The notes below the pieces were generated by a model. The model worked only from the letters and a program-made list of their open reading frames with translations. It searched no databases and had not been told where the DNA came from. A DNA stretch of 53,600 nt from NCBI GenBank assembly GCA_947164955.1, contig CAMUYT010000001.1, forward strand, positions 1 to 53,600, read 5' to 3'. The position numbers and the translations under genes are program-made. Below, one piece after another: positions 1,430 through 22,387 of the stretch; the stretch's first letter is position 1, and every line of letters begins with the position of its first letter. This DNA comes from an uncultured Bacteroidales bacterium. Lineage in GTDB: Bacteria; Bacteroidota; Bacteroidia; Bacteroidales; F082.

Positions 1430-1437
1430 TACCTTTG
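1430..1437 (+). promoter_or_regulatory. Bacteroidota-type -7 promoter box (TAnnTTTG) for the riboswitch operon
   Basis: TACCTTTG lies just upstream of the riboswitch aptamer and matches the TAnnTTTG -7 consensus of Bacteroides-type promoters. Confidence 0.4.
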
Positions 1438-1443
1438 CCGCCG

Positions 1444-1600
1444 ATATGCGGTGCCGAAAGGCTCAAAAGGGAATCAGGTGCAAATCCTGGACAGTTCCCG
1501 CTGCTGTAAACTCTTCACGCTGAGCATGATGCCACTGAAAACCACGTTTTTCGGGAAGGCGCAAGGCCCAAAGGAGTAAGTCAGAAGACCTGCCACATGT
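1444..1600 (+). promoter_or_regulatory. Cobalamin (B12) riboswitch aptamer
   Basis: Conserved core read directly: GGTGCC...AAAAGGGAATCAGGTGCAAATCCTGGACAGTTCCCGCTGCTGTAA (1450-1509), GCCACTG (1531-1537), GGGAAGGC (1553-1560), and the B12 box AGTCAGAAGACCTGCC (1579-1594). The ends are approximate. Confidence 0.85.
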
Positions 1601-1794
1601 CGGGCGAAACGATGCTTTCGGGACAAGAGCAGGCGTTCCTTATATAATAAGGTGTACTACCATTTCCCGAGGCATTTATTGACACGAGACGACGTGACAC
1701 GAGTCTTTCGACATGCTCAAGAATCTGTCCCGAGTCCCGAAGTCTCGAGTCCCGCGTCAGGAAATGAATTGTCAAACCTAAAAATTATATCATT

Positions 1795-2988
1795 ATGCGT
1801 AAAATCTTTACTATAACATTCCTCATGGGAATCTTCGGTCTGTTTTCGACCAACCTCTTTGCTCAAGAGGATGCATCAATCGACCCTGCCAACATCCGTT
1901 ATTGGATTGGCGAAGGCGAAAACGAAGTGGTTTTCATCGTCAACTGGAACGAGCCCGACACGGCTTTGGCTTGGGGCTACCGCTTCAGCGAAGAGAGCGT
2001 TACGGTGGAAGCCGTCATGGATGGCATTGCCGCCGTCGACACTCGCTTTGCCTATGACGCTGCAAGCGGCTGGCTGAGCGACATCACGTTCAACGACGGC
2101 GTCCTCGACCTGAAGTTGGCCGGCTCCTATTGGATGTTCAACGTGAACGGCGCCACGGCCATGGACCTCTACACCAACATCAACGTCGCCGATGGCGACT
2201 GGATCAAGTGGGGCGACGAATCCTGCGGCATCTTGATCGACCCCGTCAACTATTTCTACGTTTGGACGAAGGAAGTCGCTGCCGTGTATCCCCTGGCCGA
2301 CGAAGCCACGATTGACTTCTCCGAAATCCAATACTGGATTGGCGAAGGCGCCAACGAGGTGGTGTTTGCCGTCAACTGGGCCGAGCCTAACATCTGCTTG
2401 GCTTGGGGCTACCGTTTCGATGGCGAGAGCAAGATCTTGAAGGAAATCATGGACGACATCACTGCTGCCGATGCCCGCTTCAGCTATGTGCAAGGCGCTT
2501 GGGGCGTCGACGACATCAACTACAATGACGGCGAGCTTAACCTCGGTGTGTCGGAGTATTCCTACTTCCTGTACAACATCAACGGCATGATGGCCTGGTA
2601 CGGTTACGACCAACAGGAAATCGTTGCTGGCGACTTCATCAAATGGGGTGACATGGCATGCGGCACCGAAATTGCCGAGTGGACCTACGTTTGGGAGCAA
2701 CCCGTCGAACCCGTTAGCGTCTACACCAATGTGAACGAAAACGCCAACACTACGCTTTCGGTCTACCCGAATCCCGCTGTGAGCGAGACCTTTGTGACCA
2801 TCGCCAATGCCGGCATGAATGAGGTTTCGGTTTATGACATGCAAGGCCGCATGGTCGGCACGATGAACGTCGAGGCCATGGCTGGCGAACAAGTGCGTAT
2901 CAGCACGGCTGAACTGAACGCTGGTGTTTACTTCATTAATGTGAAGAGCGAAAACGCTGTCAGCACAGCAAAACTCGTCGTGAAATGA
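1795..2988 (+). CDS. T9SS-sorted secreted protein with two tandem ~130-aa domains (possible corrinoid-binding, transcobalamin-beta/DUF4430-like motif)
   Basis: Signal peptide MRKIFTITFLMGIFGLFSTNLFAQ. Internal duplication of aa 30-161 and aa 174-304 (YWIGEG.NEVVF.VNW.EP..LAWGYRF ... NG ... GD.IKWGD). The C-terminal LSVYPNPAVSETFVTI...GVYFINVKSENAVSTAKLVVK looks like a type A Por/T9SS sorting domain. It is the first gene after the B12 riboswitch. Confidence 0.85.
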   Translation: MRKIFTITFLMGIFGLFSTNLFAQEDASIDPANIRYWIGEGENEVVFIVNWNEPDTALAWGYRFSEESVTVEAVMDGIAAVDTRFAYDAASGWLSDITFNDGVLDLKLAGSYWMFNVNGATAMDLYTNINVADGDWIKWGDESCGILIDPVNYFYVWTKEVAAVYPLADEATIDFSEIQYWIGEGANEVVFAVNWAEPNICLAWGYRFDGESKILKEIMDDITAADARFSYVQGAWGVDDINYNDGELNLGVSEYSYFLYNINGMMAWYGYDQQEIVAGDFIKWGDMACGTEIAEWTYVWEQPVEPVSVYTNVNENANTTLSVYPNPAVSETFVTIANAGMNEVSVYDMQGRMVGTMNVEAMAGEQVRISTAELNAGVYFINVKSENAVSTAKLVVK

Positions 2989-3962
2989 GGAAACTCTTAT
3001 CCATAGTGATGGCCATGCTGCCGGCTGCGTTGTGGGCACAGTTTGCGCCTGCGGCAGGACTGCCCGGCAGCACGGCCATGCATGCCGACTCGTCGGCATT
3101 CGTGGCTTGGGCTACGGGTTGCACCGTCGAACGCGGCTTGCAAAATATAGCTAAGCCTTCATTGGGTGTGGCCAACTTTGGCGAAGAGGCTTTGGCCTTG
3201 GGCAAGCCCGGTGGCACGATGGACGTCGTCAGCCTTGGCGATGGCGGCGTGGCCACCTTGACTTTCGGTTCTCCCATTTACAATGGTGACGGCCCCGATT
3301 TTGCCGTGTTCGAGAACGGCTTTGCCAACGCACAACATCCCGACGAATACTTCCTTGAAATTGCATTTGTGGAAGTGAGCTCCGATGGCGAAAACTTCTT
3401 CCGTTTCCCAGCCGTCTGCAACGTGCCTTACGAGACGCAACTGAATGGCTCTGGCACGATTGTCCCCACGCTCATCCATAACTTCGCAAGCAAATATGAG
3501 GCTTTCTATGGCACGCCTTTCGACCTCGACGAGGTGGAAGACAACGCCTTGCTCGACAAGCAGCGCATCACCCATGTGCGCCTTATCGACGTGGTGGGCA
3601 GCATCGACCATGAATATGCCACCTACGACTCGGAAGGACACATTGTCAACGACCCGTTCCCGACGCCTTTCGGCTCGAGCGGCTTCGACTTGGATGCCGT
3701 CGGCGTGATTCACGACTTGGCGCACAACGATGTAAATGAAAACGAGAACGTTCGTGTGACCATGTATCCCAATCCCGTCAAAGCCAGTCTGCAAGTCAAA
3801 GCGGATGGGTTGCAAACGGTTGAGGTCTTCAATCTTGTCGGTCAGTTGGTGCTGACTTCGAAGAGCGAGTCCATCGACTTGAGCGAATTGGAAGATGGAC
3901 TTTATTTCGTCCGCGTGGTTTGCGAAGGCGGAATGGCTACGAAACGTATTGTGAAACAATAA
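2985..3962 (+). CDS. T9SS-sorted secreted protein, function unknown
   Basis: The ATGA start/stop overlap with the upstream gene suggests translational coupling. Signal peptide MRKLLSIVMAMLPAALWAQ. The C-terminal MYPNPVKASLQVKA...DGLYFVRVVCEGGMATKRIVKQ looks like a T9SS sorting domain. The core motif GDGPDFAVFENGF...FLEIAFVEVSSDGENFFRFP belongs to no family I can name. Confidence 0.8.
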   Translation: MRKLLSIVMAMLPAALWAQFAPAAGLPGSTAMHADSSAFVAWATGCTVERGLQNIAKPSLGVANFGEEALALGKPGGTMDVVSLGDGGVATLTFGSPIYNGDGPDFAVFENGFANAQHPDEYFLEIAFVEVSSDGENFFRFPAVCNVPYETQLNGSGTIVPTLIHNFASKYEAFYGTPFDLDEVEDNALLDKQRITHVRLIDVVGSIDHEYATYDSEGHIVNDPFPTPFGSSGFDLDAVGVIHDLAHNDVNENENVRVTMYPNPVKASLQVKADGLQTVEVFNLVGQLVLTSKSESIDLSELEDGLYFVRVVCEGGMATKRIVKQ

Positions 3963-3973
3963 ATTATTGAGTT

Positions 3974-5041
3974 ATGAAGAAACAAAAATGGATGTTGCTG
4001 GCTGCTTTGGCCGCGATGATGTTTGCCTGCAAACCCAACCAGCCTATTGATCCCGAGGGCTTTTCGGTGGGTTCGGGCGTGTTGGTGCTCAACGAAGGCA
4101 ACTACCAATACTCCAACGCCTCCTTGACGTTCTATGACCCAGTGGCCGACACTGTGGCCAACAACCTGTTTTACCGCGTGAACGATGCCCCGTTGGGCGA
4201 TGTGGGACAAAGCATGGCCTTGGTCGACGGGAAGCTTTACATCGTCGTCAACAACAGCAACTATATCTATAAGGTGGACGCCAACACCATGGTGTGCGAC
4301 ACGACGAAGCCCTTCCGCCTCACCGATTTCTACTCGCCGCGCGAGATGCAGTTCGTCGCGCCCAACAAAGCTTATGTTAGTGATTTGTACAGCTCTCAGC
4401 TGTGGATTGTCAACCCTCAGGACATGACTCATGCAGGCAGTATCGAGATGGGCAAGGCCACGGAGAAGATGGTGCTGGTGGGCAATGAGCTCTATGTGAG
4501 CAACTGGTCGAACACCTTTGTGCAAGGTGTGGAGAAGAACACCGTGCAGGTAGTCGATGTCAACAACGACGTGAAGGTCGCTGAAATCACGGTGGGGAAG
4601 GAGCCCAACACGATGGCGGTCGACAGGAACGGCCATGTGTGGGTGCTTTGCGAAGGCGCCACATGGGAAGCCGATGGCGAGAATCCTAGCCTTTGGGAGA
4701 TCGACCCGCAGCTGAAGATTGCCGCAAAACGATGCGAGTTTGAAGGCACTGCCTTATGCGTCAGGGCAAATCCATCAGGCGACCAGCTTTATGTTATCAA
4801 CGGCAACGTGGTGCGCCGTTTCGACATCGCCACGTTGAGTTTGTCGGAGACGTTCCATATCGAAGGCGAGTCCCAGTCGATGTTCTACAATATGGCAGTC
4901 GAGCCGACGACGGGCGACATATACATCGCCGATGCCAAGAACTTCGTGATGAACGGCACGGTGTATCGCTATTCCAACGATGGCGTGCTGTTGGCTTCGT
5001 TCACGGCAGGCCTCATCCCCAGTGCAATGTTGTTTAAATAA
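3974..5041 (+). CDS. Surface lipoprotein, YncE/BtuG-like beta-propeller
   Basis: Lipoprotein signal MKKQKWMLLAALAAMMFAC. GVLVLNEGNYQYSNASLTFYDP and repeated blade-like segments resemble the propeller lipoproteins found in Bacteroidota B12 loci. The family assignment is from memory, not from a search. Confidence 0.75.
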   Translation: MKKQKWMLLAALAAMMFACKPNQPIDPEGFSVGSGVLVLNEGNYQYSNASLTFYDPVADTVANNLFYRVNDAPLGDVGQSMALVDGKLYIVVNNSNYIYKVDANTMVCDTTKPFRLTDFYSPREMQFVAPNKAYVSDLYSSQLWIVNPQDMTHAGSIEMGKATEKMVLVGNELYVSNWSNTFVQGVEKNTVQVVDVNNDVKVAEITVGKEPNTMAVDRNGHVWVLCEGATWEADGENPSLWEIDPQLKIAAKRCEFEGTALCVRANPSGDQLYVINGNVVRRFDIATLSLSETFHIEGESQSMFYNMAVEPTTGDIYIADAKNFVMNGTVYRYSNDGVLLASFTAGLIPSAMLFK

Positions 5042-5055
5042 TTGATATTCTTTGA

Positions 5056-5107
5056 GGGGATGGCAAATCCCCAGCTCTGTTCGGGCGGATGGCACATCCG
5101 CCCGAAC
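5056..5107 (+). terminator. Two tandem stem-loops with a conserved loop (GGGGA-TGGCAAA-TCCCC; GTTCGGGCGGA-TGGCACA-TCCGCCCGAAC)
   Basis: A 5-bp stem at 5056-5072 and a perfect 11-bp stem at 5079-5107, followed by TTT. They sit between the propeller lipoprotein gene and the CWC gene. They could be a partial terminator, an mRNA stabiliser or a processing site. Confidence 0.45.
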
Positions 5108-5127
5108 TTTCTAAAACAATTCAACAA

Positions 5128-5292
5128 ATGACTAAAACCTGTCCCCGCTGCGGAAAAACATTCGAATGCGTCCATGCTGTGGATTGCTGGTGCGTCAAGG
5201 TGAAGCTCACTGACGCTACGAAAGCCTATTTGAAGGAACATTACAGCGACTGTCTGTGCAAGGAATGCCTCGATAAACTGAACCAACAATGA
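5128..5292 (+). CDS. Cysteine-rich CWC family small protein
   Basis: MTKTCPRCGKTFECVHAVDCWCVKV...CLCKECLDKL. I prefer the ATG at 5128 over the track start at 5089, because 5089 lies in the loop of the 11-bp hairpin. Confidence 0.7.
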   Translation: MTKTCPRCGKTFECVHAVDCWCVKVKLTDATKAYLKEHYSDCLCKECLDKLNQQ

Positions 5293-6413
5293 GAAAACTT
5301 TGGCTTTTGCTGTTGTTTCCTTTGTTGGCTTGTAGCCATCAAACGAAACAAACTGAAGAGATGGCGCACGGCGACAACCTGATGCGCTATGCGAAAAACA
5401 TCTCGGTCTACGAGAAAGACTACGGCTATCGCGCCGAGGTGCTCTGCCCTTGGGACACCACGCTTTCGTTGGGCTCGTTTGCTTTCGTGAAAGACACGAC
5501 AAAGGTCGTTGATACCGATGTGAAAGGCGTTTTGAAAGTCCCAGTCAATTCGGTGATTTCGTTTTCGGCCACGCAATGGGCTGTGTTTTTGCGTTTGGGT
5601 GAAATCAATCGCGTGAAAGGTATCCTCGAAGGACGTTTCGTGCATGATTCTACGATGCTTGGCCTGTTGGCGCAGGAGAAGGTTTACGACATTGGTACCG
5701 AGGCCGCTGCCGACGTGGAACGGATGATCCAGCTGAAGCCCGATGCCTTGCTTTATTCCCCTTATTTCGATGGCAACCAAGGTGGACTGAACGTCACGGG
5801 AGCGGTGCTGTTCCCCTTTGCCGACTATATGGAGAACACGCCTTTGGGTCGCGCCGAGTGGATCCGCGTCATCGGGATGCTGGCGGGCTGCGAGGACAAG
5901 GCTGACGCTTGGTTTGCCGACATTGAACGACGCTACAACGCGCTTTCCGGACTGTGTGCCAACGTGGAAACGCGCCCCACGGTGTTTTCCGACTTGGCTT
6001 TCAACGGGCAGTGGTACGTGGCAGGCGGTCGCAGCTACATCGCCAAGCTCTTCGCCGATGCCGGTGCCGACTATATCTGGAAAGACAACCCTTCGACGGC
6101 CAGCGTACCGATGGATGCCGAGAGCATCCTCGCCAAGGCACAGCATGCCGACTATTGGCGTGTCATCAATTCCAATCCTTTCCCGATGACCTACGAGTCG
6201 TTAGCCAAAGAGAGTCCCGTCTATCCGCTTTTCGACGCCTTCAAGAACCACAAAATCATTGTTTGTGACATCCTCCCCACGGGCTATTTCGAGCAGTCGC
6301 AATGCGAGCCTGACCTGCTATTGGCCGATTTCATCCATTTCTTCCACCCCGAACTTCTTACGGGCGAATGGGCTGATTATCAGCCTAAATATTACCATTT
6401 GGTAGGGGAATGA
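5289..6413 (+). CDS. ABC-type corrinoid/siderophore periplasmic binding lipoprotein (BtuF-like, Peripla_BP_2 type)
   Basis: ATGA overlap with the CWC gene. Lipoprotein signal MRKLWLLLLFPLLAC. The overall sequence pattern is typical of Fe3+-siderophore/B12 binding proteins, and the gene is in a B12 riboswitch operon. Confidence 0.75.
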   Translation: MRKLWLLLLFPLLACSHQTKQTEEMAHGDNLMRYAKNISVYEKDYGYRAEVLCPWDTTLSLGSFAFVKDTTKVVDTDVKGVLKVPVNSVISFSATQWAVFLRLGEINRVKGILEGRFVHDSTMLGLLAQEKVYDIGTEAAADVERMIQLKPDALLYSPYFDGNQGGLNVTGAVLFPFADYMENTPLGRAEWIRVIGMLAGCEDKADAWFADIERRYNALSGLCANVETRPTVFSDLAFNGQWYVAGGRSYIAKLFADAGADYIWKDNPSTASVPMDAESILAKAQHADYWRVINSNPFPMTYESLAKESPVYPLFDAFKNHKIIVCDILPTGYFEQSQCEPDLLLADFIHFFHPELLTGEWADYQPKYYHLVGE

Positions 6414-6584
6414 TCACCGTCTGAACGGACAGTCAGCCGAACAGCTGGCACAACCGCTGCAATTCCCTTTGTTTTTTCCGTCACTGCCACAGGAGCATTT
6501 GCCTTTGCCGCTTCGTAAAGTGTGGATGGCCAAAACGACCATCGCTAGGACGACCAACAGCACTATGACGGTAGCGAGGTTCAT
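6414..6584 (-). CDS. FeoB-associated Cys-rich small membrane protein
   Basis: MNLATVIVLLVVLAMVVLAIHTLRSGKGKCSCGSDGKNKGNCSGCASCSADCPFRR: one TM helix plus a Cys-rich tail. Its ATG overlaps the feoB stop (ATGA). The track ORF 6414..6716 is an upstream over-extension into feoB. Confidence 0.75.
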   Translation of the reverse strand: MNLATVIVLLVVLAMVVLAIHTLRSGKGKCSCGSDGKNKGNCSGCASCSADCPFRR

Positions 6585-8947
6585 GCGATGACGGCGTTGG
6601 CAATAAGGTAAGCAACGAAGGCGACAATCCAGGCGACGACGCACTGGAACAGGATGATGAACAGCATCCACTTGGTGCCTAGCTCGCGACGGATGGCGGC
6701 CACGGCTGCCACGCAAGGCGTGTAGAGCAGGCAGAACACCAACATGGAGACGCTGCTGGCTAAGGTGAACAACGGCATGGCGTTCAAGACTTCCAATGTG
6801 GCGATGACGCTCTCCTTGGCCATGAAACCGCTAATCAAAGCCGTGACGACCTGCCAACTACCCAGTCCGATGGGACGGAACACGGGAGCAATCCAGCCAG
6901 CCACGCTCGCCAACATGCTTCCTTCGCCATTCTCTACCATAGTGAAATGGAAATCAAAGGTTTGCAAGAACCAAATGACCAAAGTAGCGAGGAAGATGAC
7001 TGTGAAAGCGCGTTGCACGAAGTCTTTGGTCTTGTCCCAAAGCAGGTGGGCGACGTTCTTTGCGCTCGGCAGGCGGTAGTTGGGCAACTCCATGACGAAG
7101 GGGGCCACATCACCCTTGTCGCCGAACCATTTGGTGAACAACGCTGTGACGATGCCGACGAGGATGCCCAAAAGATAGAGGCAAATCAGCACCAAGCCGC
7201 CATGGCCAGGGAAGAAATAGCTCGTGAAGAAGCCGTAGATCGGGATTTTGGCCGAACAGCTCATGAAAGGCGTCAGCAGGATGGTGCGCCAGCGGTCGTG
7301 GGCGGAGTGGAGGGTGCGTGTGGCCATCACTGCGGGCACGGTGCAACCGAAGCCGATGAGCATGGGCACGATGCTGTGTCCGGTGAGACCGAGCTTGCGC
7401 AAGAAGCTGTCGCTGACGAAAGCTACGCGGGCCATATAGCCGCTGTCTTCGAGCAGGCTGAGGAAGAAGAACAGCAAGATGATGATAGGCACGAAACTCA
7501 ACACGCTGCCTACGCCGCCAAAGATGCCGTCGACGACGAGCGACTGCACGGCGGGACTGACGTTCCAGTTGGCCAAAGCGGTGCCTACCACGCCAGCGAG
7601 CCAGCTGATGCCTTGGTCGAGCCAGTCTTGCAGGGGCGCACCGAGGGCGTCGATGCTGAGCCAGATGATGCCCACCATGACGAGGATGAAGATGGGGATG
7701 GCGGTCCATTTGCCGGTCAGGATCTTGTCGATTTTGCGGCTGCGGCGGTATTCTTTGCTTTCCTTGGGCTTCACCACCGTCTTGTCGCACAGCTTCTTAA
7801 TGAAGGCAAAACGCATCTCAGCCATGGCCGCGGCGCGGTCGAGGCCGCGTTCCTCTTCCATCTGAACGATGAGGTGTTCCAAGGTCTCTTTCTCGTTTTG
7901 GGTGAGTTGCAAGGCCTCGAGCACGATGGGGTCGCCTTCCACAAGTTTGGAGGCAGCAAAGCGCACGGGGATGTCGGCACGCTGGGCATGGTCCTCGATG
8001 AGGTGCATGATGCTATGGAGGCAACGGTGCACGGCACCGCCGTGGTCGTCCTTGTCGCAAAAGTCCTGACGCGCAGGGGCTTCCTGGTATTTCGCCACAT
8101 GGATGGCGTGGTCGACCAACTCGTTGATGCCTTCGTTTTTGGAGGCAGAGATGGGGACCACGGGCAGACCAAGGATCTTCTCCATCTCGTTCATGAGGAT
8201 ACTGCCGCCGTTGTTGCGCACTTCGTCCATCATATTGAGTGCCAGCACCATGGGCTTGCCTAACTCCATCAGTTGCATGGTGAGGTAAAGGTTGCGCTCG
8301 ATGTTGTTGGCATCCACGATGTTGATGATGGCCTTGGGCTTCTGTTGCATGATGAACTCGCGTGAGACGACCTCCTCGGAGGTGTAGGGCGACAGCGAAT
8401 AGATGCCCGGCAGGTCGGTGACCGAGGTCTCGGGATGACCTTTGATGACGCCGTCCTTGCGGTCGACGGTGACACCAGGGAAGTTGCCCACATGTTGGTT
8501 GGCCCCCGTCAGTTGGTTGAAAAGCGTCGTCTTGCCGCAATTTTGTTGTCCGGCAAGGGCAAAGGTGAGCTTGGTGCCTTTGGGCAGTGGGTTTTCGTGG
8601 GTCTTGTCGTGGTAAATGCCTTCCTCGCCAAGGCCTGGGTGGGCGTTGTGGTCGTGCAAGGCAGTGATATAGAGTTGCTCATTGTCTTGATGGTCAGTGC
8701 CTTCAGCTTCATCGGATGGGTCGCAAGGCACCACACCGATGAGGGCGGCGTCGGCTTTGCGAAGCGTCAAGGCGTAGCCGTGCACCATGATTTCCATGGG
8801 GTCGCCAAGGGGCGCGTATTTCACGAGTTTGATGATAGCGTCAGGGATGAGTCCCATGTCGAGGAAGTGCTGGCGGCGTTGGCCTTCGCCTTCCACGGTT
8901 TTGATGCGGGCGGATTGACCGACTCCAAGTTTATCGAGGGTTGTCAT
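6581..8947 (-). CDS. feoB: Ferrous iron transporter FeoB with fused N-terminal FeoA domain
   Basis: The N-terminal FeoA-like segment is LGVGQSARIKTVEGEG...LGDPMEIMVHGYALTLRKADA. The G-domain has GQQNCGKTTLFNQLTG and DLPGIYSL. A polytopic membrane domain follows. Confidence 0.95.
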   Translation of the reverse strand: MTTLDKLGVGQSARIKTVEGEGQRRQHFLDMGLIPDAIIKLVKYAPLGDPMEIMVHGYALTLRKADAALIGVVPCDPSDEAEGTDHQDNEQLYITALHDHNAHPGLGEEGIYHDKTHENPLPKGTKLTFALAGQQNCGKTTLFNQLTGANQHVGNFPGVTVDRKDGVIKGHPETSVTDLPGIYSLSPYTSEEVVSREFIMQQKPKAIINIVDANNIERNLYLTMQLMELGKPMVLALNMMDEVRNNGGSILMNEMEKILGLPVVPISASKNEGINELVDHAIHVAKYQEAPARQDFCDKDDHGGAVHRCLHSIMHLIEDHAQRADIPVRFAASKLVEGDPIVLEALQLTQNEKETLEHLIVQMEEERGLDRAAAMAEMRFAFIKKLCDKTVVKPKESKEYRRSRKIDKILTGKWTAIPIFILVMVGIIWLSIDALGAPLQDWLDQGISWLAGVVGTALANWNVSPAVQSLVVDGIFGGVGSVLSFVPIIILLFFFLSLLEDSGYMARVAFVSDSFLRKLGLTGHSIVPMLIGFGCTVPAVMATRTLHSAHDRWRTILLTPFMSCSAKIPIYGFFTSYFFPGHGGLVLICLYLLGILVGIVTALFTKWFGDKGDVAPFVMELPNYRLPSAKNVAHLLWDKTKDFVQRAFTVIFLATLVIWFLQTFDFHFTMVENGEGSMLASVAGWIAPVFRPIGLGSWQVVTALISGFMAKESVIATLEVLNAMPLFTLASSVSMLVFCLLYTPCVAAVAAIRRELGTKWMLFIILFQCVVAWIVAFVAYLIANAVIA

Positions 8948-9033
8948 TTCGTTCTGATGTTTTCAACCTGCAAAAATACGGCTTTTAGTGCGTTGTTGGC
9001 TTCATTATTTATAAGGTTTATGCAAGGATTTTA

Positions 9034-9049
9034 TCATCATTTATGATGA
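9034..9049. promoter_or_regulatory. AT-rich inverted repeat TCATCAT-TT-ATGATGA (Fur-box-like) in the feoAB / kinase divergent intergenic region
   Basis: 7-bp arms read directly. It lies ~87 bp upstream of the feoAB ATG and ~35-50 bp upstream of the TATTTTTG box at 9084-9091. Confidence 0.3.
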
Positions 9050-9112
9050 GAAAAACGGAATAGCTCTATTTTTCAAAAAATTGTATTTTTGCACCGATAT
9101 TTCGATGCTGCT

Positions 9113-10954
9113 ATGATTCATGTTTTGCTCTTCGTGTTGTGTTTTGTGGGTCATGACAACCTGATTGATGACCACGCTGACCCCGATTCCGTCAAGGTGG
9201 AGCTCATCCGTTATCTGGAAGAGGACGACTTCGACAAGACGGTGGGGTATGCCAAGGCGGCCGTGGAGTACTACCGCAGCCGCAACGACCTCATGGACGT
9301 GGCAGGCTGCTACATGACCTTGGGCAACGCTTACCAACGTATGGGGCAATACGAGGAGGCCATCCGCAACTACAACCTTTGCAGCGAAACGATGGACCAA
9401 ATTGGTGGCCCGATGGCTAAGGTCAACAAACGGTATGTGCTCAACAACATGGCTGTGATGTACCTCGAAATGGGGGAATACGACCAGGCCGAGTCAATGT
9501 GGAACCGGTGTATCGCCTCGGTCAATGACGACGACCCAGGATTTTTGCTGCAATACAACCAAGACTCGCTGCGTTGCCTCGATTTGGCCACCTACTACCA
9601 AAACCTCGCCGAGGTGCGTTTGGCGCAAGCCGACAACGATGAGCCAAGGCAACAGGAAAAGATCGGCGAGGCCATCCGCTTTTTGGAGCAGTCGCTCGAC
9701 TATTCGGAACGCTATGGCGCCGAACCCAACAAGATTGTCGGTCGGTTGACGGGTTTGGCGAAGGCTTATTTCGAGGCAGGCCGCACCGACGACGCCAACC
9801 ATAACTTGGATGCCGCGTTGCAGCTGGCCACCACTCTTGACGACCCCTATATGCTCGCTGCCATCCACTTGCTGAAAGGCGATGTGAAGCTGAAACTTGG
9901 CCAGAACGAAAACGCAGAAAGAGCGTATCTTGACGCACTCTCTTTGGCCCAGGAGAACCATTTCGGCGAGTTCGAGATGGAGGCACTGAACGGTGCCTAC
10001 GAATGCACCAAAGACAGCCAACCCAAACGGGCTTTGGCCTACTTCACCCAAAACGTCGCCCTCAAAGACTCCATTTACAATAAAGAGCAACAAGCCCTCA
10101 TCCGCGACTTCGAGGTGCAATACAAGATGGAGGAGAAGGAGCATGAATTGACCTTGCAACGTGAGAAAAACCGCCAAGGCAAACGTTTGCTGGCGTTGTC
10201 GGCGACAGTGGCTCTCTTGCTGTTGGTGTTGTTGGGCGTCGTGCTGGTCGTTTTGCGTCAGCGCAAACGGCGCAACGCCCTGAAGGACCATTTGCTTTTT
10301 GTCGTTGTACACGATATCAAGACGCCGGTGCAGACGCAATCCCAGTTGCTTGAGATGACCCATGAACACATCGACGAGATGACCATGCCCGAAATGAAGG
10401 AGAACCTGCAAGCCCTGAAAGTTTCGGCCGACGACCTGAACGAGAAGCTGCAAAACATCATCTATTGGGTGAAATGCGAGATGGGCAAGGCCGAAAACCC
10501 GCCCAAACGCTTCGTGTTACGTGACTTGGCAGACGAGGTGGTTGGCGAAATGACTTCGCATATCCAGATGAAGTCGTTGACCGTTGTCAACACGATTCCG
10601 GCCGAATGGGCGTGCCTCGACGATGACAATATCGTGAGGATGGTGCTGCAAAATCTCTTGTCTAATGCGGTGAAATTCTCGTGGCCCAACGGCGAGGTCA
10701 AGATCAGTGCCAACGAAGCATCAGGGAGCTATTGGGTTGCAGTGAGCGACAAGGGTATGGGCATCCCGAAGGACAAGCTGCAACGATTGTTCAATGATGT
10801 GGTCACCAACAGCGACGGCACCATTGGGGAGATGGGTACGGGCATCGGCCTCTTCGTCACCAAGCAATTAATGGAACGCAATGGCGGCAAGGTAAAGTTG
10901 GAAAGCGAAGAGGGACGAGGCACCACAGTTAGTTTCACTGTCAAAAAAGCGTAA
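9113..10954 (+). CDS. TPR-repeat sensor histidine kinase
   Basis: N-terminal hydrophobic segment, TPR-like repeats (e.g. YMTLGNAYQRMGQYEEAIRNY), TM segment LLALSATVALLLLVLLGVVLVVL, H-box FVVVHDIKTP, and HATPase motif GTGIGLFVTKQLMERNGG. The ATG at 9113 is chosen because the track start (9089, TTG) overlaps the TATTTTTG -7 box at 9084-9091. Confidence 0.85.
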   Translation: MIHVLLFVLCFVGHDNLIDDHADPDSVKVELIRYLEEDDFDKTVGYAKAAVEYYRSRNDLMDVAGCYMTLGNAYQRMGQYEEAIRNYNLCSETMDQIGGPMAKVNKRYVLNNMAVMYLEMGEYDQAESMWNRCIASVNDDDPGFLLQYNQDSLRCLDLATYYQNLAEVRLAQADNDEPRQQEKIGEAIRFLEQSLDYSERYGAEPNKIVGRLTGLAKAYFEAGRTDDANHNLDAALQLATTLDDPYMLAAIHLLKGDVKLKLGQNENAERAYLDALSLAQENHFGEFEMEALNGAYECTKDSQPKRALAYFTQNVALKDSIYNKEQQALIRDFEVQYKMEEKEHELTLQREKNRQGKRLLALSATVALLLLVLLGVVLVVLRQRKRRNALKDHLLFVVVHDIKTPVQTQSQLLEMTHEHIDEMTMPEMKENLQALKVSADDLNEKLQNIIYWVKCEMGKAENPPKRFVLRDLADEVVGEMTSHIQMKSLTVVNTIPAEWACLDDDNIVRMVLQNLLSNAVKFSWPNGEVKISANEASGSYWVAVSDKGMGIPKDKLQRLFNDVVTNSDGTIGEMGTGIGLFVTKQLMERNGGKVKLESEEGRGTTVSFTVKKA

Positions 10955-10957
10955 AAA

Positions 10958-11569
10958 ATGGCTAACAAACGGAAAATCAATATTATGATAGTGGACGACC
11001 ACCCGATTTTTCGTGTTGGTTTGAAGATGACGTTGCGGTATTCAGGCATTGCCTTCCAAGTGGTGTCGGAGACAGAGAATGTGATGCAATCCACAGAATA
11101 CTTGAAAGCCAATGGCCACGAACTCGACCTGCTCCTGCTCGATTTTTTCCTTACCGATGGCACTGCCTTCGATGTGCTCGATGCGGTTGAATTGTACTGT
11201 CCCTCAGTAAAGGTGTTGTTGCTTTCGGGCGAGGTGTTGCCCCCTAAGGTGATGGCGCAAATACGTGACCGCATTGACGGCTTTATCGGCAAGAACGTGA
11301 AGCCTGATGAGATGAAGCAACGCATTGATATGCTTTTCGGGACGACTCTCGAGCCCGTCTCAGTCCCAGTTTCCGAAGAACTTTCTGATCGCGAGAAAGA
11401 GATTATCAAGCTGTGTGCCCAAGGCTTGACCGCAAAAGAGATAGGGGAGAAGCTGCACATCGGCAAACGCACCGTTGAGACCCACAAGGAACGCATCTTC
11501 CTCAAACTCGGACTGAAGTCCACGAAAGAATTGATCAACTATGCCGTCCGCCATGGGTTGACGGAGTGA
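10958..11569 (+). CDS. Response regulator, REC + LuxR/NarL-type HTH
   Basis: INIMIVDDHPIFRVGL...LLLDFFLTDG is the receiver domain. LSDREKEIIKLCAQGLTAKEIGEKLHIGKRTVETHKERIFLKLG is the LuxR HTH. Confidence 0.9.
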   Translation: MANKRKINIMIVDDHPIFRVGLKMTLRYSGIAFQVVSETENVMQSTEYLKANGHELDLLLLDFFLTDGTAFDVLDAVELYCPSVKVLLLSGEVLPPKVMAQIRDRIDGFIGKNVKPDEMKQRIDMLFGTTLEPVSVPVSEELSDREKEIIKLCAQGLTAKEIGEKLHIGKRTVETHKERIFLKLGLKSTKELINYAVRHGLTE

Positions 11570-11712: not shown

Positions 11713-14700
11713 ATGAAGAAAAAGTTTACGTTTCTGTTGGCAGCCTTGGTGCTGCTCGGCGGCTTGGTCGGTCCGATGGGGAAGGCCAAGGGACAGTCGA
11801 TTACATTTACGAACCTAACTAACCCGCAGCCTACTTTGAGTTTCAGCTATGGCGTTGGCAATGAGGCCCCTGAGGGACAATATGCCTATGTCAGTTGCGC
11901 CAACCTTGGTGAGGGCAACGACGTGACCGTCAGCTTGGGCCAAGGCAGTAACAGCCATTTCGAGCTGTGGTACTTGCAATCAAGCCAAAACTCATGGATC
12001 AACCTTACCCAATTCACGGCCACCAACACTGATCAGTATTGGTTCGGATTCGATTTCCTCGTTCGCCTGAAGCCAGGCTATGAGCAAGACAGCGAACACT
12101 CGGATGTCGTCACCCTTACGGCGACAGTGAATGGAAGCACCGTTTCGGCCTCCATCACGCTTACGGGAACGGTGACGGCAACAACCTACAACATCGAGTT
12201 TGACTATGGCCTCAATCCTCACGGTTGGGTGGCGGTTTACCCTTCACATGATGTCGTGGCAGGGGAAAACGTTTACATGGATGTGCATCCAACCTCTGGC
12301 TATCGCTTTCAATCCTTTACTTTCTATAGGAAAAGCAACCATGAGGTAGTGAATAGTGAAGATGTTTCTTTTTATGATTTAAGCGATTATCCGTATGCAG
12401 ATCACGAGTATACTTTCATGATGCCTGCCTACGATCTGCTGATTGAAGCATCGTTTGTGCCCAACAGCTCACTGCCTACACCTACCATCATGGTGGGAAC
12501 CACTCCGATGGCGTTCTACAACGGCTACGGCGACCCCGACCCCGAAGGAAATTTTTTATGGTTTGGCGTCCAAAATCCTGGCAACAATTCGGCCATTTGG
12601 GCTGAAGTGAACTCAACCGACTTCGAGCTTTGCCAAGTCACCGAACCGGATGCCATCACTTGGAACGGCCAATACGTTGGCGTTCAAAGCACCGACGCCA
12701 ATTATTTCGGATTCACTTTAGGCATACGCCTGAAGCCCGGCTTGGAACGTGGCACCTACAGCGGCGTCCTCACGTTAGGCGCCGACCGTGCCACAGAAGT
12801 TGTCATCAACCTTACGGGAACAGTGACCGACCCGACTTATCACATTGAAATCTTGGAAGCCACCCCAATTCCCACTGCTGGTTATGCCTCGTGTAATGAA
12901 GGCTATGACCACACCGCAGGCACCGAGGTCACTCTGGCGACGCAACTCAGCTCAGGCTATGTCGGCACTGGCGTTTGGACCGTGTTCAAGGAAGAAGATG
13001 GCGAATGGGTGGCCGACAACTCAGTGGAAATCATCGGCAATAGTTTCACCATGCCTGCCTACGACATCAAGATACAACCTCATTTCAGGTCGACGACCGC
13101 GCCTTGCATCGTGGTGGGTGATTATTACATTACCCTTTCCCAGTCGGTGGCTGAAGGTTTCCGCATGACGGGCGCGACGTGCTACAACTTCACCCCACAA
13201 GGCGGCATCACTGTCAAGCAATATACGGACGCAACTTGTCATGTAGAGCAAACTGATCGTTGGCTGACCATAACCACGGATTGGAATGGTACTGGATACT
13301 ATTTGTTAGTCCATTTTGAGACAATCAATACAAGTTCGGAGAATCGCACGACTTATGCGCGAATCGAAGGGGTAACAGCTGAAGGCGATAACGTTTATTC
13401 TGATCCTATCGAAATCACCCAGTTGGGCAGGACCTCTATCAGCTTTGGCGAAAACAACCAATTGAGTCTTGCCTGGGAGGGCCAAAGCGGCACCATCCCG
13501 TTGGTTTGCCACAACTTGTCGGGCGTCCACCATTGGAAGGTGAAAACCCCTGAAGGCGGTTGCGAGCTCAACTTCAGATGGCTTACGCTCGATTTCGTGG
13601 AAACTAACGATGGCTACGAGATCCATTACCACTGCCTAGGCAATTCTTTGGCCGTTGGGCGTACCGTATGCCTTTCCGTTTGGGCCTACGATGCCAACGG
13701 CAACGTCATGGGAGCATCCGAGAATTGGCTTGATGGCGACTACCTGACCATCCACCAAGACCCCGAAACGCTCATCTCCACCACGCGCGACGTGTATAGT
13801 TTCGACGAAACTGGCGCTACGCAAGTCTACACCTGCCCGCCCGAGGGAAGCAGCTTCACTGTAGTTTCAAACCAAACAGGGTCTTTCAACTATAATACAA
13901 TTTATTCTCCTAACTATCCTAATGAGGCCAATTACATTGAGCTTCAACTGAGAGGCTATGTCGACCACGCCATTAAGGGTATCAAGCTGGATATGATGCC
14001 GGGCGAAACTGCTTGGGGCATGGTGCAAGTTTATGTGGGAGATTTGAACGCAATTTACCATGATTTGGCCCACGTCAACAATGGTACCCTCAGATCGTGG
14101 CCCAACGTGACCTACAGCGACGAGTGTTATGTTGACCTCGATGTCGAGATGAACGGAGACGATGCCGATTATGTCATCGGATCGGGTGACACGCTGAAGA
14201 TTCGCATCACCTCGACGGGTGGAACGCTTTATTGCCAAGGCGTCACGGTTGATTATGTGGGAGCGCCGAGCTATGTGACTGAAAAATGGTATGAGACCGA
14301 CTTGGAGGACATCCTTCCTGGCGATGAGTTTGTCATTGCAGGATATTATGTTTTCCATTGGTATGGCATGGACAACACCAATGGCAAGGCTATTCCGTTA
14401 AATCTTACGTCTGATGAAAGCGAGTTGAGTAGCGTTGAGGGACAAACGGAAGTCACCAACAATGTGATTTGGACACTTGATCGCTACCAAGGCAAATACC
14501 TCTTCAAGCCTGTTGGCACTACGGGCCAATACTTGAAGTGCTCCACTTCGGGGGATGTGACCATTGGCACAGGCTCGGATAATCGTGGTTTCGAATGGTC
14601 GCCCCGCCCCATGTTCAACGACCACTATTACCTCTACTGCAACGGCTACTATTTGGTCATTGACGAAAACGGCGATTATTACAATCACTATTGGAAAGGC

Positions 14701-17181
14701 TTTGATGCCAACCATACTCCGGGAAGGACAACCAAATTCTTCAAGAAGACGTATGAATACCTTTATGATAATATTGCTACTGCAAGATACCAGGCAAGCC
14801 AAGCTGATCCCGTGGTGCTTAACGTGCGTGGCGTGGTGAGTCACAAGTCGGGGGCTTATCTGTATTTGCAAGATGCAGATGATGCCAGTTCACATGTTGC
14901 CATAATGCTCAGACGTAACGATTTTGTCAACGAAGACGATTACAACCAGATCGTTAAGGGCGACGAAATCATCGTAAGAGGTAAGCCTTATCGGACTGAG
15001 AATGGATATGTAGTGGCCATGCACAACCTCAGTTTGCTCCAGGTGAAGAGTCAGGGCAACACGGTGACACCGATAGAGGTGACTACTTCCGAATTGACGA
15101 ATGATGATGGTAGCGATCCATGGAACACCAAGGAATTCATGCTTGTCAAAGTAGAAAATGCCGTTGTGGACTATGTGAATTCGAACACGGAATTCACCAT
15201 TTCTCAAGAAACGGTACAAGCCTCGGTGTCGCACCACACCAATGTGGAAGTGGCGCAATTCAATGAAGTTGACGTGATTGGTGTGTTCAGAAGGACTTCT
15301 AATGGTCCTGAAATCTTTATCCGTTCGGTCAACGACATCACCGTCTATCACCCGCACAACGTGATTTACGGCCCTGTGATCCAAAACGAATCCACCCCCG
15401 ACGCGCAATATTTGCCGGTCGTTACGCTCAATACAGAAAGCAACTATAGTGGAGCCTATATGCAAGACGACCAAATCAACCTCAGTTTCCCGACCTCGTT
15501 GACAACGGGAGCCAATGATGTAATCTTCTACCAATATTCAGGTGTCGGCGTCTATACCCTCGACGAACAGAACCAGAGGACTTACCTTGAGCCAACTGGC
15601 GGCGATGCCAGCGACAATCGGAGTTGGATTGAGTTCACCATGCCCAACGAAGACGTGCATGTAGAGGTGTATTACACCAGAATGTACCAGCTTCGTTACT
15701 ATTCCTATGCGGGTTCCTATCTCCAGTCGAACGTACTTGAAGGCACATACGCACATTCCGGCCCGTTGTATAACATTAATATGCCTGCCCCCGAAGGCTA
15801 TTCTTTGGTCGGTTTTTCGAGAGGCGGAGAATACTATTGCGGTGACTATTTGGATTATGGCGTTTATGAGACGGGTGCCACCATGCTCTACAACGATGTC
15901 ATTTGGTATTGGCCTTTGTTCCAGAAAGCAGGCGAGGAGGAACTTTACACCATGGTGTTTGTTGGCGATCAGACATACGGAGGTGAAACCGAAAACCTTG
16001 ATGTAAACGGCCCGATGCTTGTTGAATCTGGCGCAGTGTTAAACATGGGAAGCAATGGCATTGTGAACACACATTATGATTGGTTCGTCATCGAAGATGG
16101 AGGCCAGGTGATATGTAACAATCCTTTCAGAGGCACAATGCACAAAAACATCACGGGCTATGGCACTGGGGACGGCAACTGGTATTTGCTTTCGAATCCT
16201 CTCCAAGATCAATCTGATGTATTTGCCACGAATTATATCCAAAACCTTATCGACGCCAACGGCGAATACGACCTTTATTCCTTCGACCAAAGCGAAGAAA
16301 AAGAATGGAGGAACTTCAAACAAACAAACCATAGCCACGAGTGGAAACGCGGACAAGGCGTGCTGTATGCCAATAAGAATGATGTTACGGTGGAATTCAA
16401 GCAGGATCTGAATAATCCTACAAACGGTTATGATGTTGTGTATGATGGCAACGCTTCATTCAAGGGCTTCAACCTTGTTGGCAATCCTTGGACCTACGAT
16501 GCCTACGTCAACAGGACTTACTATCGGATGAACGCGGAAGGGACTGGGCTTGTCGAGGTCAATGACAACGCGCCTATCCATCCTTTGGAAGCCGTGTTCG
16601 TTGAGATTGCTTCAGAAGATGATGGACATAAAGTCGTTTTCACTAGGGAACCAGAATTTGTTTCGCAAACCATGACGGCTACGCCTCAGCTGCCGCTGTC
16701 GCATGCTCAGTCGGAGCATCAGGATGCATCGTTGGTGATGGCCATTTCATTGGTTACAGGCTGGAACTGGTGGACACCCATGGTGCAGATTACTGCAGCG
16801 CAACTGAATAACACGCTCAATGGATGCTTGACACAGATTATGGCGAAAAATGAAGAAAATGTCAGCGGGGAACTCAATCCTGGACAGATGTACAAACTGT
16901 ATTCGACTGCCGATGTCAACGATGTAGCTGTGAATGGCGTACCCGTTTCGCCCAGTATTACGATTGAAGCTGGCTCCAACTGGATTGGTTACACTGGAGA
17001 AAACACTACCGACATTGCTGTTGCTCTTACCACACTTCTTGGAACCTCGTTCACACCTAATGAAGGCGACAAGATTATCTCGCAAGACGGTGGTTTTGTC
17101 ATATTCAATGGCTCAATTTGGCAAGGAACACTAACCCAGCTTACGCAAGGACATGGGTATGTGTACGTGCGTGCTCAATAA
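11713..17181 (+). CDS. Giant secreted/surface protein (1822 aa) with duplicated N-terminal modules containing Listeria-Bacteroides-type repeats and a C-terminal two-repeat module
   Basis: Signal peptide MKKKFTFLLAALVLLGGLVGPMGKAKGQ. Two ~230-aa N-terminal modules each end in Flg_new-like units (YNIEFDY...SGYRFQSF...FMMPAYDLLIEASF; YHIEILE...SGYVGTG...FTMPAYDIKIQPHF). No type A T9SS sorting domain is seen at the end. Confidence 0.85.
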   Translation: MKKKFTFLLAALVLLGGLVGPMGKAKGQSITFTNLTNPQPTLSFSYGVGNEAPEGQYAYVSCANLGEGNDVTVSLGQGSNSHFELWYLQSSQNSWINLTQFTATNTDQYWFGFDFLVRLKPGYEQDSEHSDVVTLTATVNGSTVSASITLTGTVTATTYNIEFDYGLNPHGWVAVYPSHDVVAGENVYMDVHPTSGYRFQSFTFYRKSNHEVVNSEDVSFYDLSDYPYADHEYTFMMPAYDLLIEASFVPNSSLPTPTIMVGTTPMAFYNGYGDPDPEGNFLWFGVQNPGNNSAIWAEVNSTDFELCQVTEPDAITWNGQYVGVQSTDANYFGFTLGIRLKPGLERGTYSGVLTLGADRATEVVINLTGTVTDPTYHIEILEATPIPTAGYASCNEGYDHTAGTEVTLATQLSSGYVGTGVWTVFKEEDGEWVADNSVEIIGNSFTMPAYDIKIQPHFRSTTAPCIVVGDYYITLSQSVAEGFRMTGATCYNFTPQGGITVKQYTDATCHVEQTDRWLTITTDWNGTGYYLLVHFETINTSSENRTTYARIEGVTAEGDNVYSDPIEITQLGRTSISFGENNQLSLAWEGQSGTIPLVCHNLSGVHHWKVKTPEGGCELNFRWLTLDFVETNDGYEIHYHCLGNSLAVGRTVCLSVWAYDANGNVMGASENWLDGDYLTIHQDPETLISTTRDVYSFDETGATQVYTCPPEGSSFTVVSNQTGSFNYNTIYSPNYPNEANYIELQLRGYVDHAIKGIKLDMMPGETAWGMVQVYVGDLNAIYHDLAHVNNGTLRSWPNVTYSDECYVDLDVEMNGDDADYVIGSGDTLKIRITSTGGTLYCQGVTVDYVGAPSYVTEKWYETDLEDILPGDEFVIAGYYVFHWYGMDNTNGKAIPLNLTSDESELSSVEGQTEVTNNVIWTLDRYQGKYLFKPVGTTGQYLKCSTSGDVTIGTGSDNRGFEWSPRPMFNDHYYLYCNGYYLVIDENGDYYNHYWKGFDANHTPGRTTKFFKKTYEYLYDNIATARYQASQADPVVLNVRGVVSHKSGAYLYLQDADDASSHVAIMLRRNDFVNEDDYNQIVKGDEIIVRGKPYRTENGYVVAMHNLSLLQVKSQGNTVTPIEVTTSELTNDDGSDPWNTKEFMLVKVENAVVDYVNSNTEFTISQETVQASVSHHTNVEVAQFNEVDVIGVFRRTSNGPEIFIRSVNDITVYHPHNVIYGPVIQNESTPDAQYLPVVTLNTESNYSGAYMQDDQINLSFPTSLTTGANDVIFYQYSGVGVYTLDEQNQRTYLEPTGGDASDNRSWIEFTMPNEDVHVEVYYTRMYQLRYYSYAGSYLQSNVLEGTYAHSGPLYNINMPAPEGYSLVGFSRGGEYYCGDYLDYGVYETGATMLYNDVIWYWPLFQKAGEEELYTMVFVGDQTYGGETENLDVNGPMLVESGAVLNMGSNGIVNTHYDWFVIEDGGQVICNNPFRGTMHKNITGYGTGDGNWYLLSNPLQDQSDVFATNYIQNLIDANGEYDLYSFDQSEEKEWRNFKQTNHSHEWKRGQGVLYANKNDVTVEFKQDLNNPTNGYDVVYDGNASFKGFNLVGNPWTYDAYVNRTYYRMNAEGTGLVEVNDNAPIHPLEAVFVEIASEDDGHKVVFTREPEFVSQTMTATPQLPLSHAQSEHQDASLVMAISLVTGWNWWTPMVQITAAQLNNTLNGCLTQIMAKNEENVSGELNPGQMYKLYSTADVNDVAVNGVPVSPSITIEAGSNWIGYTGENTTDIAVALTTLLGTSFTPNEGDKIISQDGGFVIFNGSIWQGTLTQLTQGHGYVYVRAQ
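16741..17178 (+). other. C-terminal ~146-aa module shared with the 2123-aa protein (GWNWW ... PGxMYK ... NWxGYTG ... PNEGDxI ... WxGxLxxL ... GxGYxY)
   Basis: Hand alignment with 28265-28750. The 15-nt string GGCTGGAACTGGTGG is identical at 16759-16773 and 28283-28297. Confidence 0.7.
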
Positions 17182-22171: not shown

Positions 22172-22387
22172 TTGGAGGTCTGCTTGTTTATGAAATGCAA
22201 AAGTATGAAAAAAAACTCATGTAACTCACAAGTGCGAGAGGTGGCAAGGCCGAAAAATGCGTTATATTGCCATGAAAAAGGAAAATGGACTTTTTGTCAA
22301 AAAATCAAGCAAAAATCATTGTTATATTAAATAAATCACTATTTTTGAAGCGATAAAAATATAGTAATTAACTTTAAAATTTTGATT

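Follow-up and report, generated by a model that had tools for sequence, protein, structure and literature searches.

The stretch of DNA examined here (the window) comprises 53,600 nucleotides of contig CAMUYT010000001.1, and derives from an uncultured rumen/hindgut Bacteroidales bacterium (Candidatus Limimorpha-like). Near its start, it carries a cobalamin (vitamin B12) riboswitch, followed on the plus strand by five open reading frames (ORFs), named g1 to g5 in order. The first two encode secreted proteins with sorting domains of the type IX secretion system (T9SS), and the third a homologue of BtuG. The locus, a candidate system for corrinoid capture, had been outlined in a preliminary description based on the nucleotide sequence, and consists of the following features.

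1430-1437, plus strand: -7 promoter motif of Bacteroidota type, TAnnTTTG (TACCTTTG), overlapping the 5′ end of the riboswitch aptamer
1432-1611, plus strand: cobalamin riboswitch aptamer RF00174 (108.7 bits, E 2.3e-26, model positions 1-189, full length)
1614-1630, plus strand: hairpin GCTTTCGGGACAAGAGC just 3′ of the aptamer, candidate kissing-loop (L13-like) expression-platform element
1795-2988, plus strand: g1, secreted protein; two modules of the DUF4430/transcobalamin-beta-like kind (residues ~30-160 and ~175-305) precede a T9SS type A sorting domain (323-397)
2985-3962, plus strand: g2, secreted protein; a ~230-residue domain without annotation (residues ~19-255) precedes a T9SS type A sorting domain (260-325)
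3974-5041, plus strand: g3, BtuG homologue, a seven-bladed beta-propeller lipoprotein (lipobox ..MFAC↓K, cleavage at the arrow)
5079-5107, plus strand: perfect 13-bp hairpin (GTTCGGGCGGATG gca CATCCGCCCGAAC) between g3 and g4, GC-rich, with a 3-nucleotide loop and followed by TTTCT
5128-5292, plus strand: g4, small cysteine-rich CWC protein of 54 residues without a signal peptide (PF14375, 47.2 bits; the longest ORF begins at 5089)
5289-6413, plus strand: g5, BtuF-like class III substrate-binding lipoprotein (lipobox ..LLAC↓S; Peripla_BP_2, 83.8 bits)

The cobalamin riboswitch that had been recognized by inspection was recovered by the RF00174 search (gathering score 31.5 bits), and was the sole Rfam match in the window. 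Riboswitch occurrence and gene order were counted in 90 loci related to the window. A cobalamin riboswitch was found immediately upstream of g1 in 88 of them, and the remaining two are truncated by contig ends. The motif TAnnTTTG, which we take to be the Bacteroides -7 promoter consensus, recurs at an identical position in 87 of 88 related loci. In the hairpin that follows the aptamer, GCTTTCGGGA is invariant in an alignment of 15 loci, and the loop CGGGA (1619-1623) is complementary to the aptamer segment TCCCG (1496-1500), a pairing read from the sequence. Kissing-loop platforms occur in other cobalamin riboswitches and this arrangement resembles them, making the hairpin a candidate for the kissing-loop switch element of the expression platform, with a putative structure. 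The leader (1590-1810) did not fold better than shuffled sequences (z -0.49), and sigma-70 and terminator scans revealed nothing above expectation.

The five ORFs are tightly packed as had been described, with ATGA overlaps between g1 and g2 (2985-2988) and between g4 and g5 (5289-5292). Profile searches also confirmed the two type A sorting domains. TIGR04183 matched g1 with 56.7 bits and g2 with 47.8 bits (cut-off 23), and Pfam Por_Secre_tail (PF18962; cut-off 27) matched them with 53.5 and 43.5 bits, respectively. The modelled sorting domain of g2 matches the solved T9SS sorting domains 8qb1, 8glk, and 8gl6 in Foldseek. Both signal peptides, read by eye from the translations, are of the signal peptidase I type, ending in ..NLFA↓QEDA (g1) and ..LWA↓QFAP (g2), and neither has a lipobox cysteine. 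Three further families named in the preliminary description, PF14478 in g1, PF14375 in g4, and Peripla_BP_2 in g5, all scored above their cut-offs. In searches of the Protein Data Bank (PDB) by sequence and profile, g1 and g2 were matched through their sorting domains alone.

Upstream of its sorting domain, g1 consists of modules of ~145 residues each, and relatives were found with two, three, or four of them (~396, 541, and 685 residues). The whole protein matches Pfam DUF4430 (PF14478) with 29.0 bits, above the gathering score of 23.8, and a one-module relative (L164) matches it with 26.4 bits over profile positions 3-68, nearly the whole profile. An AlphaFold model of g1 was obtained with a mean predicted local distance difference test (pLDDT) score of 65, the modules being mostly at 70-90. 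The best Foldseek match of the model was the bacterial DUF4430 structure 3u7z (E 5e-4, template modelling (TM) score 0.64), followed by haptocorrin (4kki), intrinsic factor (3kq4 and 2pmv), and transcobalamin (7qbe), all with probability 1.00. Against the isolated transcobalamin beta domain, 5no0, the TM score was 0.62 and the probability again 1.00. Because of these matches, the model identifies g1 as a tandem array of transcobalamin-beta-like domains placed on a T9SS sorting domain. The C-terminal beta domain of the eukaryotic carriers (transcobalamin, intrinsic factor, and haptocorrin) is a DUF4430 domain, and the g1 modules match both the Pfam family and the fold. However, g1 lacks the alpha6/alpha6 barrel domain of these carriers; its module is repeated two to four times within the family, and it is a bacterial protein with a T9SS sorting domain. 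Sequence identity between g1 and the carriers is just 10-17%, and the corrinoid binding of g1 is predicted.

The N-terminal domain of g2 matched no Pfam family, even at E values up to 10, and a Foldseek search with the g2 model recovered the sorting domain only. The family is nonetheless large: a scan of 1.84 billion representative proteins revealed 2284 relatives of the domain, 694 of them at E < 1e-30. Some are proteins of ~330 residues; elsewhere, the domain lies within long multidomain proteins, and one relative (P0254) contains, in addition to it, both DUF4465 and a T9SS sorting domain. A profile of the g2 domain (A3) had as its best PDB match residues 429-475 of 8blw_B, at E 0.022. This region belongs to a BtuH-type B12-binding domain that is fused to BtuG1 (PMC10404256). 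A BtuG1 fragment of 47 residues, used to look for BtuH-domain sequences, gave one fragment of 80 residues. An H domain for comparison was stitched across frameshifts in the homologous locus L091. Alignment of the g2 domain with this stitched sequence by hhalign gave a probability of 78-86% and a score of 41.7, over ~50 columns only, compared to a mean of 14.2 and a maximum of 26.6 in 300 shuffles.

A relationship between the g2 domain and BtuH is thus possible, although membership of that family is not established. BtuH (BT_1956, and the BtuG1 fusion BT_1490) is likewise an extracytoplasmic domain of ~230-250 residues that is found in B12 loci with PKD or propeller partners, and the motif SLG-GG---F--PI-N--G-DF----N ... 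V-VS-D is common to both. The similarity, however, extends over ~50 residues and is unstable between profiles, and BtuH is a surface lipoprotein, whereas g2 is T9SS cargo with a signal peptidase I signal. An assignment of g2 to the DUF4465/BtuJ family was rejected, as there was no Pfam match (PF14717) and the hhalign probability was 0.65%. The BtuJ/DUF4465 proteins (IPR027828) are, like g1 and g2, extracellular products of B12 loci; they are jelly-roll proteins, and some are fused to a g2-type domain, whereas g1 and g2 themselves have no DUF4465 domain. Comparison with a near-identical strain (L001, 11191-12159) showed g2 alone to be divergent, with 70% identity to the window g2 (2985-3962) distributed evenly along its length. 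Identities for g1, g3, g4, g5, and FeoAB were 95%, 97%, 98%, 98%, and 99%, respectively. In another strain (L085), g2 is 95% identical. The divergence in L001 looks like allelic replacement or diversifying selection, judging from these identities.

The third gene had been called a propeller lipoprotein; this was correct, but its identity was missed. Over its whole length, g3 matches the solved BtuG structures 8bmx_D, 8bmy, 8p97_B, and 3dsm with phmmer E values of 8e-56 to 2e-54 (best alignment, residues 26-355 with 8bmx_D, E 8e-56), and a DUF5074 match was found with 82 bits. The BtuK1 propeller (9s6c) was matched at just E 3e-4. By sequence comparison, g3 is a canonical BtuG lipoprotein. It had been proposed that the T9SS provides the capture layer at this locus instead of BtuG-type lipoproteins. 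That proposal fails because g3 is a BtuG lipoprotein encoded in the same operon: the T9SS proteins come in addition to BtuG and do not replace it.

The two remaining genes are a small CWC gene and a gene for a periplasmic-type binding protein. Translation of g4 probably starts at the Met codon at 5128, as called in relatives, since the 13-bp hairpin (5079-5107) overlaps the longer ORF. The CWC gene is kept even in short cassettes that lack BtuG and BtuF, which ties g4 to g1-g2 rather than to BtuF. The g5 protein is conserved in the long form of the cassette. Its Peripla_BP_2 match lies well above the gathering score (27.5 bits), no close solved relative was found, and its NCBIfam matches are weak and to heme and siderophore binders only. 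It is called BtuF-like on the basis of its genomic context.

The hairpin between g3 and g4 may possibly act as a partial terminator or as a transcript-stabilizing element, from its sequence, although the terminator scan did not flag it. Mobile or defence DNA sits at the same junction in three related loci (L022, L024, and L029). The insert in L024 consists of an EcoRI restriction-modification pair, a metallophosphoesterase, and ThyX, and that in L029 encodes an AAA ATPase; both were considered as possible btuB genes and rejected as mobile or defence genes. The presence of a 13-bp hairpin at this junction suggests that it may be a partial transcription boundary. An alternative to a single operon would be two transcription units, riboswitch-g1-g2-g3 and a g4-g5 unit outside riboswitch control. 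The perfect hairpin with its TTTCT, and inserts placed exactly at the junction with g4-g5 retained, would fit such an arrangement. However, the CWC gene directly follows g2 in the short cassettes, no promoter was identified upstream of g4, and the hairpin was not called a terminator, so that two units appear unlikely. Downstream of the cluster, feoAB lies on the opposite strand and is convergent to it. A role in iron or heme metabolism, suggested by this neighbor, was dropped, because feoAB is convergent on the other strand and is missing from many related loci.

A search with g1 against one genome per GTDB species revealed relatives in 226 genomes. The best 80 of these 226 were inspected for their origin; all belong to uncultured Bacteroidales, several carrying the name Candidatus Limimorpha, and their sources are rumen, abomasum, horse, deer, bird, and human gut. 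Most loci of the clade have the gene order g1-g2-BtuG-CWC-BtuF. Neighboring genes in relatives encode other sorting-domain proteins, an indirect indication of T9SS machinery in these genomes. In four loci (L012, L015, L025, and L026) an extra gene was found between g1 and g2. In L012 (11188-12492) it encodes a protein of 434 residues whose only Pfam domain is a T9SS sorting domain; L015, L025, and L026 have a gap of the size of this insert between g1 and g2.

The preliminary description had stated that the operon contains no BtuB. Among the large ORFs of the window, neither a TonB-dependent receptor nor BtuCD was found, and a tblastn search of the window with BtuB from a relative gave no match. 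Searches for btuB across the window and the 90 loci were negative except in L077 and L091. The absence of btuB is a conserved property of the locus. It is not a general feature of such operons, because L077 has btuB between g2 and btuG, and most environmental loci (see below) are btuB-adjacent; the btuB-less operon is particular to this uncultured rumen/hindgut Bacteroidales clade, Candidatus Limimorpha and its relatives. In L077 (Ca. Limimorpha avicola), the order is riboswitch-g1-g2-TonB-dependent receptor-BtuG-NrdD, and the receptor matches Bacteroides BtuB structures with E 2e-70. The nrdD gene of this locus (9014-11119), encoding an anaerobic, B12-independent ribonucleotide reductase, lies directly after btuG on the same strand, and may share the B12-repressed transcript.

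Outside this clade, metagenomes were searched with the g2 domain. The search yielded 80 loci (marine, freshwater, sediment, sludge, and gut), with 71 full-length g2-type proteins on which the domain counts rest. A T9SS sorting domain is present in 68 of the 71, and nearly all open with a signal peptide ending ..AQ↓(F/Y)xPxAGQxGSTAI. Fusions to DUF4465 were found in eight and a fusion to a BtuG-like propeller in one, and one protein carries PEP-CTERM. The gene typically adjoins btuB-btuG. Of the 80 loci, 43 have a same-strand cobalamin riboswitch upstream, and short contigs make up many of the others. Gene order varies: riboswitch-g2-BtuB-BtuG, riboswitch-BtuB-BtuG-g2, riboswitch-g1-BtuB-g2-BtuG (L108), riboswitch-BtuB-g1-g2-BtuG (L132), and riboswitch-g1-g2-BtuB (L120) were all observed. 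The g1-like proteins of other lineages likewise carry T9SS sorting domains, and in four loci (L138, L148, L156, and L167) one protein unites g1 modules with the g2 domain. The L138 fusion (2214-9374) is a protein of 2386 residues behind a cobalamin riboswitch, with several g1-type modules and a g2-type domain; those of L148, L156, and L167 are smaller. Only three long loci (L109, L159, and L161) lack a B12 context. In L109, a flavin mononucleotide (FMN) riboswitch (118.8 bits, 13144-13271) lies ~4 kb downstream of the g2-like gene. Other anchors were seen on the g2-domain proteins of L127 (1058-2377) and L149 (7887-8672), one being PEP-CTERM and one a lipoprotein signal without a sorting domain. 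From these sequences, the g2 domain seems to be paired with whatever surface-anchoring system the host has.

This distribution bears directly on whether g1 and g2 have anything to do with corrinoids. Both could be T9SS cargo of another kind (adhesins, other ligand binders, or surface structural proteins) that shares the B12-repressed transcript, as riboswitch-controlled B12-independent isozymes do. Such an explanation would be in keeping with the predicted status of corrinoid binding by both proteins, the deposition of 3u7z as a ‘putative metal binding protein’, the lack of a Pfam family for the g2 domain, and the position of nrdD, the gene of a B12-independent enzyme, after btuG in L077. The recurrence of the genes beside btuB-btuG and riboswitches in distant lineages, the match of the g1 fold to haptocorrin, intrinsic factor, and transcobalamin, and the fusion of g2 domains to DUF4465 and to a BtuG-like propeller all argue against it; moreover, secreted proteins are implausible as B12-independent isozymes. 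We consider it very improbable. The earlier proposal that T9SS proteins take part in corrinoid capture is, to this extent, supported: by the transcobalamin-beta fold predicted for g1, the g2-DUF4465 fusions, and the co-location with btuB-btuG and riboswitches in unrelated Bacteroidota.

The locus is probably a B12-repressed accessory corrinoid-scavenging operon, in which T9SS-exported g1 and g2 bind corrinoids and feed a BtuBG transporter; this is the reading we favor, with some reserve. At low intracellular cobalamin, the riboswitch would permit expression of a transcript starting at the TAnnTTTG promoter, and g1 and g2 would cross the inner membrane via Sec. Recognition of the C-terminal type A sorting domains by the T9SS would carry both proteins to the cell surface, onto vesicles, or into the medium. 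Outside the cell, g1 would bind corrinoids through its two transcobalamin-beta-like modules, and g2 through the domain that has the motif shared with BtuH. The two would pass the corrinoid to the BtuG lipoprotein g3, which would load a BtuB encoded elsewhere in the genome, and in the periplasm g5 would accept it on behalf of a BtuCD that is likewise encoded at another site.

Several observations weigh against this reading. The receiving transporter is unseen: neither btuB nor btuCD was found in the window, nor in the 10-kb surroundings of 88 loci of the clade, and no components of the T9SS machinery were found in the window. Single g1 modules score 17-19 bits, below the DUF4430 cut-off, and align to profile positions 36-68, the C-terminal half; the g1 model, at its mean pLDDT, is only moderately confident. 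The predicted structure of the g2 domain has low confidence (pLDDT 48, from an alignment of 29 sequences), and its similarity to BtuH, spanning only ~50 residues, reached E 0.022 in one PDB profile search. The match to 8blw_B/BtuG1 disappeared with a deeper g2 profile (A7), which is why BtuH membership is left as a possibility. Finally, about 20 related loci consist of g1-g2-CWC only, followed by feoAB, without BtuG or BtuF.

These short cassettes would also fit a role of g1 and g2 in sequestering corrinoids for competition or storage, withholding them from neighbors or host binders without delivery to a transporter, which would explain the btuB-less operon. The lack of a nearby btuB in this clade points the same way, and BtuJ1 has been presented in a preprint as a reservoir of the vitamin outside the cell (10.1101/2025.07.01.662609). 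However, repression by intracellular B12 suits acquisition better than competition, the genes are embedded in btuB-btuG operons in most other lineages, and L077 retains btuB within the cassette. Sequestration is, on balance, quite improbable.

Scavenging for a transporter agrees with what is known of Bacteroides thetaiotaomicron, in which several surface B12 binders (BtuG, BtuH, BtuJ, and BtuK) feed BtuB, and BtuH, BtuJ, and BtuK are all lipidated and encoded in loci with BtuB-BtuG (PMC10404256, PMC8941943, PMC12751083, PMC13616437). In addition, btuG has been described as ‘always’ adjacent to btuB (PMC10404256), and DUF4465 is the fold of BtuJ and binds B12 (PMC12751083). The Btu loci of that organism share with the window operon the cobalamin riboswitch, the BtuG propeller lipoprotein, a lipidated BtuF-like protein, extra extracytoplasmic proteins ahead of the transporter genes, and the logic of a multi-protein extracellular relay. 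In contrast, the accessory proteins of the window have Sec signals and T9SS sorting domains rather than lipoprotein signals, none of the B. thetaiotaomicron binders has the DUF4430/transcobalamin-beta fold of g1, and the window operon lacks btuB and btuCD. The relay logic is already known. No description is known of the export route, of the transcobalamin-like repeat protein, of the g2 family, or of the btuB-less operon. A full-text literature search, in which part of the papers were judged by title or abstract, found no paper linking the T9SS with corrinoid capture. This largely upholds the earlier statement that a T9SS route for corrinoids was undescribed, with one reservation. The entry IPR026444, which we take to be the T9SS sorting domain, has a bearing here. 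It was counted on 229 of 824 DUF4465 proteins (PMC12751083), the only published hint found and a passing one, and a link between the T9SS and B12 is, therefore, not wholly unmentioned in the literature.

Within the scavenging reading, the fate of g1 and g2 after export can be viewed in two ways. Type A sorting domains occur on released and on anchored cargo alike, as in Flavobacterium johnsoniae and Porphyromonas gingivalis. Rather than remaining cell-anchored, g1 and g2 might lose the sorting domain by cleavage and leave the cell as ‘cobalophores’, either soluble or carried on vesicles, which would catch B12 far from the cell and bring it back to BtuG/BtuB, in the manner of hemophores and of the BtuJ-loaded vesicles of B. 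thetaiotaomicron. The sorting domains are compatible with this, as are the action of BtuJ on extracellular vesicles (PMC12751083), the two to four modules in g1 relatives, which fit a capacity-tuned scavenger, and the unlinking of btuB from the operon. However, sequence does not tell release from anchoring, and the frequent btuB-btuG adjacency in other lineages equally fits a cell-surface relay. Release of the window proteins is, for these reasons, regarded as doubtful. A broader proposal is advanced tentatively, as one that we do not expect to hold in full: that Bacteroidota with a T9SS use it to export a whole set of corrinoid binders. The set would include a tandem-repeat bacterial relative of the B12-binding beta domain found in mammalian transcobalamin, intrinsic factor, and haptocorrin, and an undescribed family, thousands of proteins strong, with the ~230-residue domain. 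As cobalophores, secreted or carried on vesicles, these proteins could act at a distance from BtuB and be genetically unlinked to it, and would form a self-standing B12-repressed module in rumen Limimorpha-like bacteria.

Competition for B12 shapes gut and rumen communities, on which the B12 supply of ruminants depends, and corrinoid capture in Bacteroidota is at present modelled on Bacteroides, which has no T9SS and uses surface lipoproteins. If g1 and g2 bind corrinoids, the T9SS would be a route of vitamin acquisition in many Bacteroidota of rumen, marine, freshwater, and soil habitats. Two new families of binders, one with the fold of a mammalian carrier, would stand beside BtuG, BtuH, BtuJ, and BtuK, and BtuG would be able to work when genetically unlinked from btuB. 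Both families are abundant (g1 in 226 species genomes; the g2 domain in 2284 representative clusters).

Elsewhere in the window, two giant ORFs were found at 11713-17181 and 22382-28753. One encodes 1822 residues with no Pfam match, and the other 2123 residues with BspA-type leucine-rich repeats and one fn3 domain; neither shows a T9SS sorting domain at E < 0.001. The segment 33556-46729 is a defence or restriction island. Its genes encode an HTH-Peptidase_M78 protein (ImmA/IrrE-like), an SNF2-type helicase of 1077 residues, a DUF4391 protein, an N6/N4 DNA methylase, two proteins of the Schlafen AlbA_2 type, of which one is Fic-like at its C-terminus, and a ResIII helicase that carries an RE_endonuc domain.

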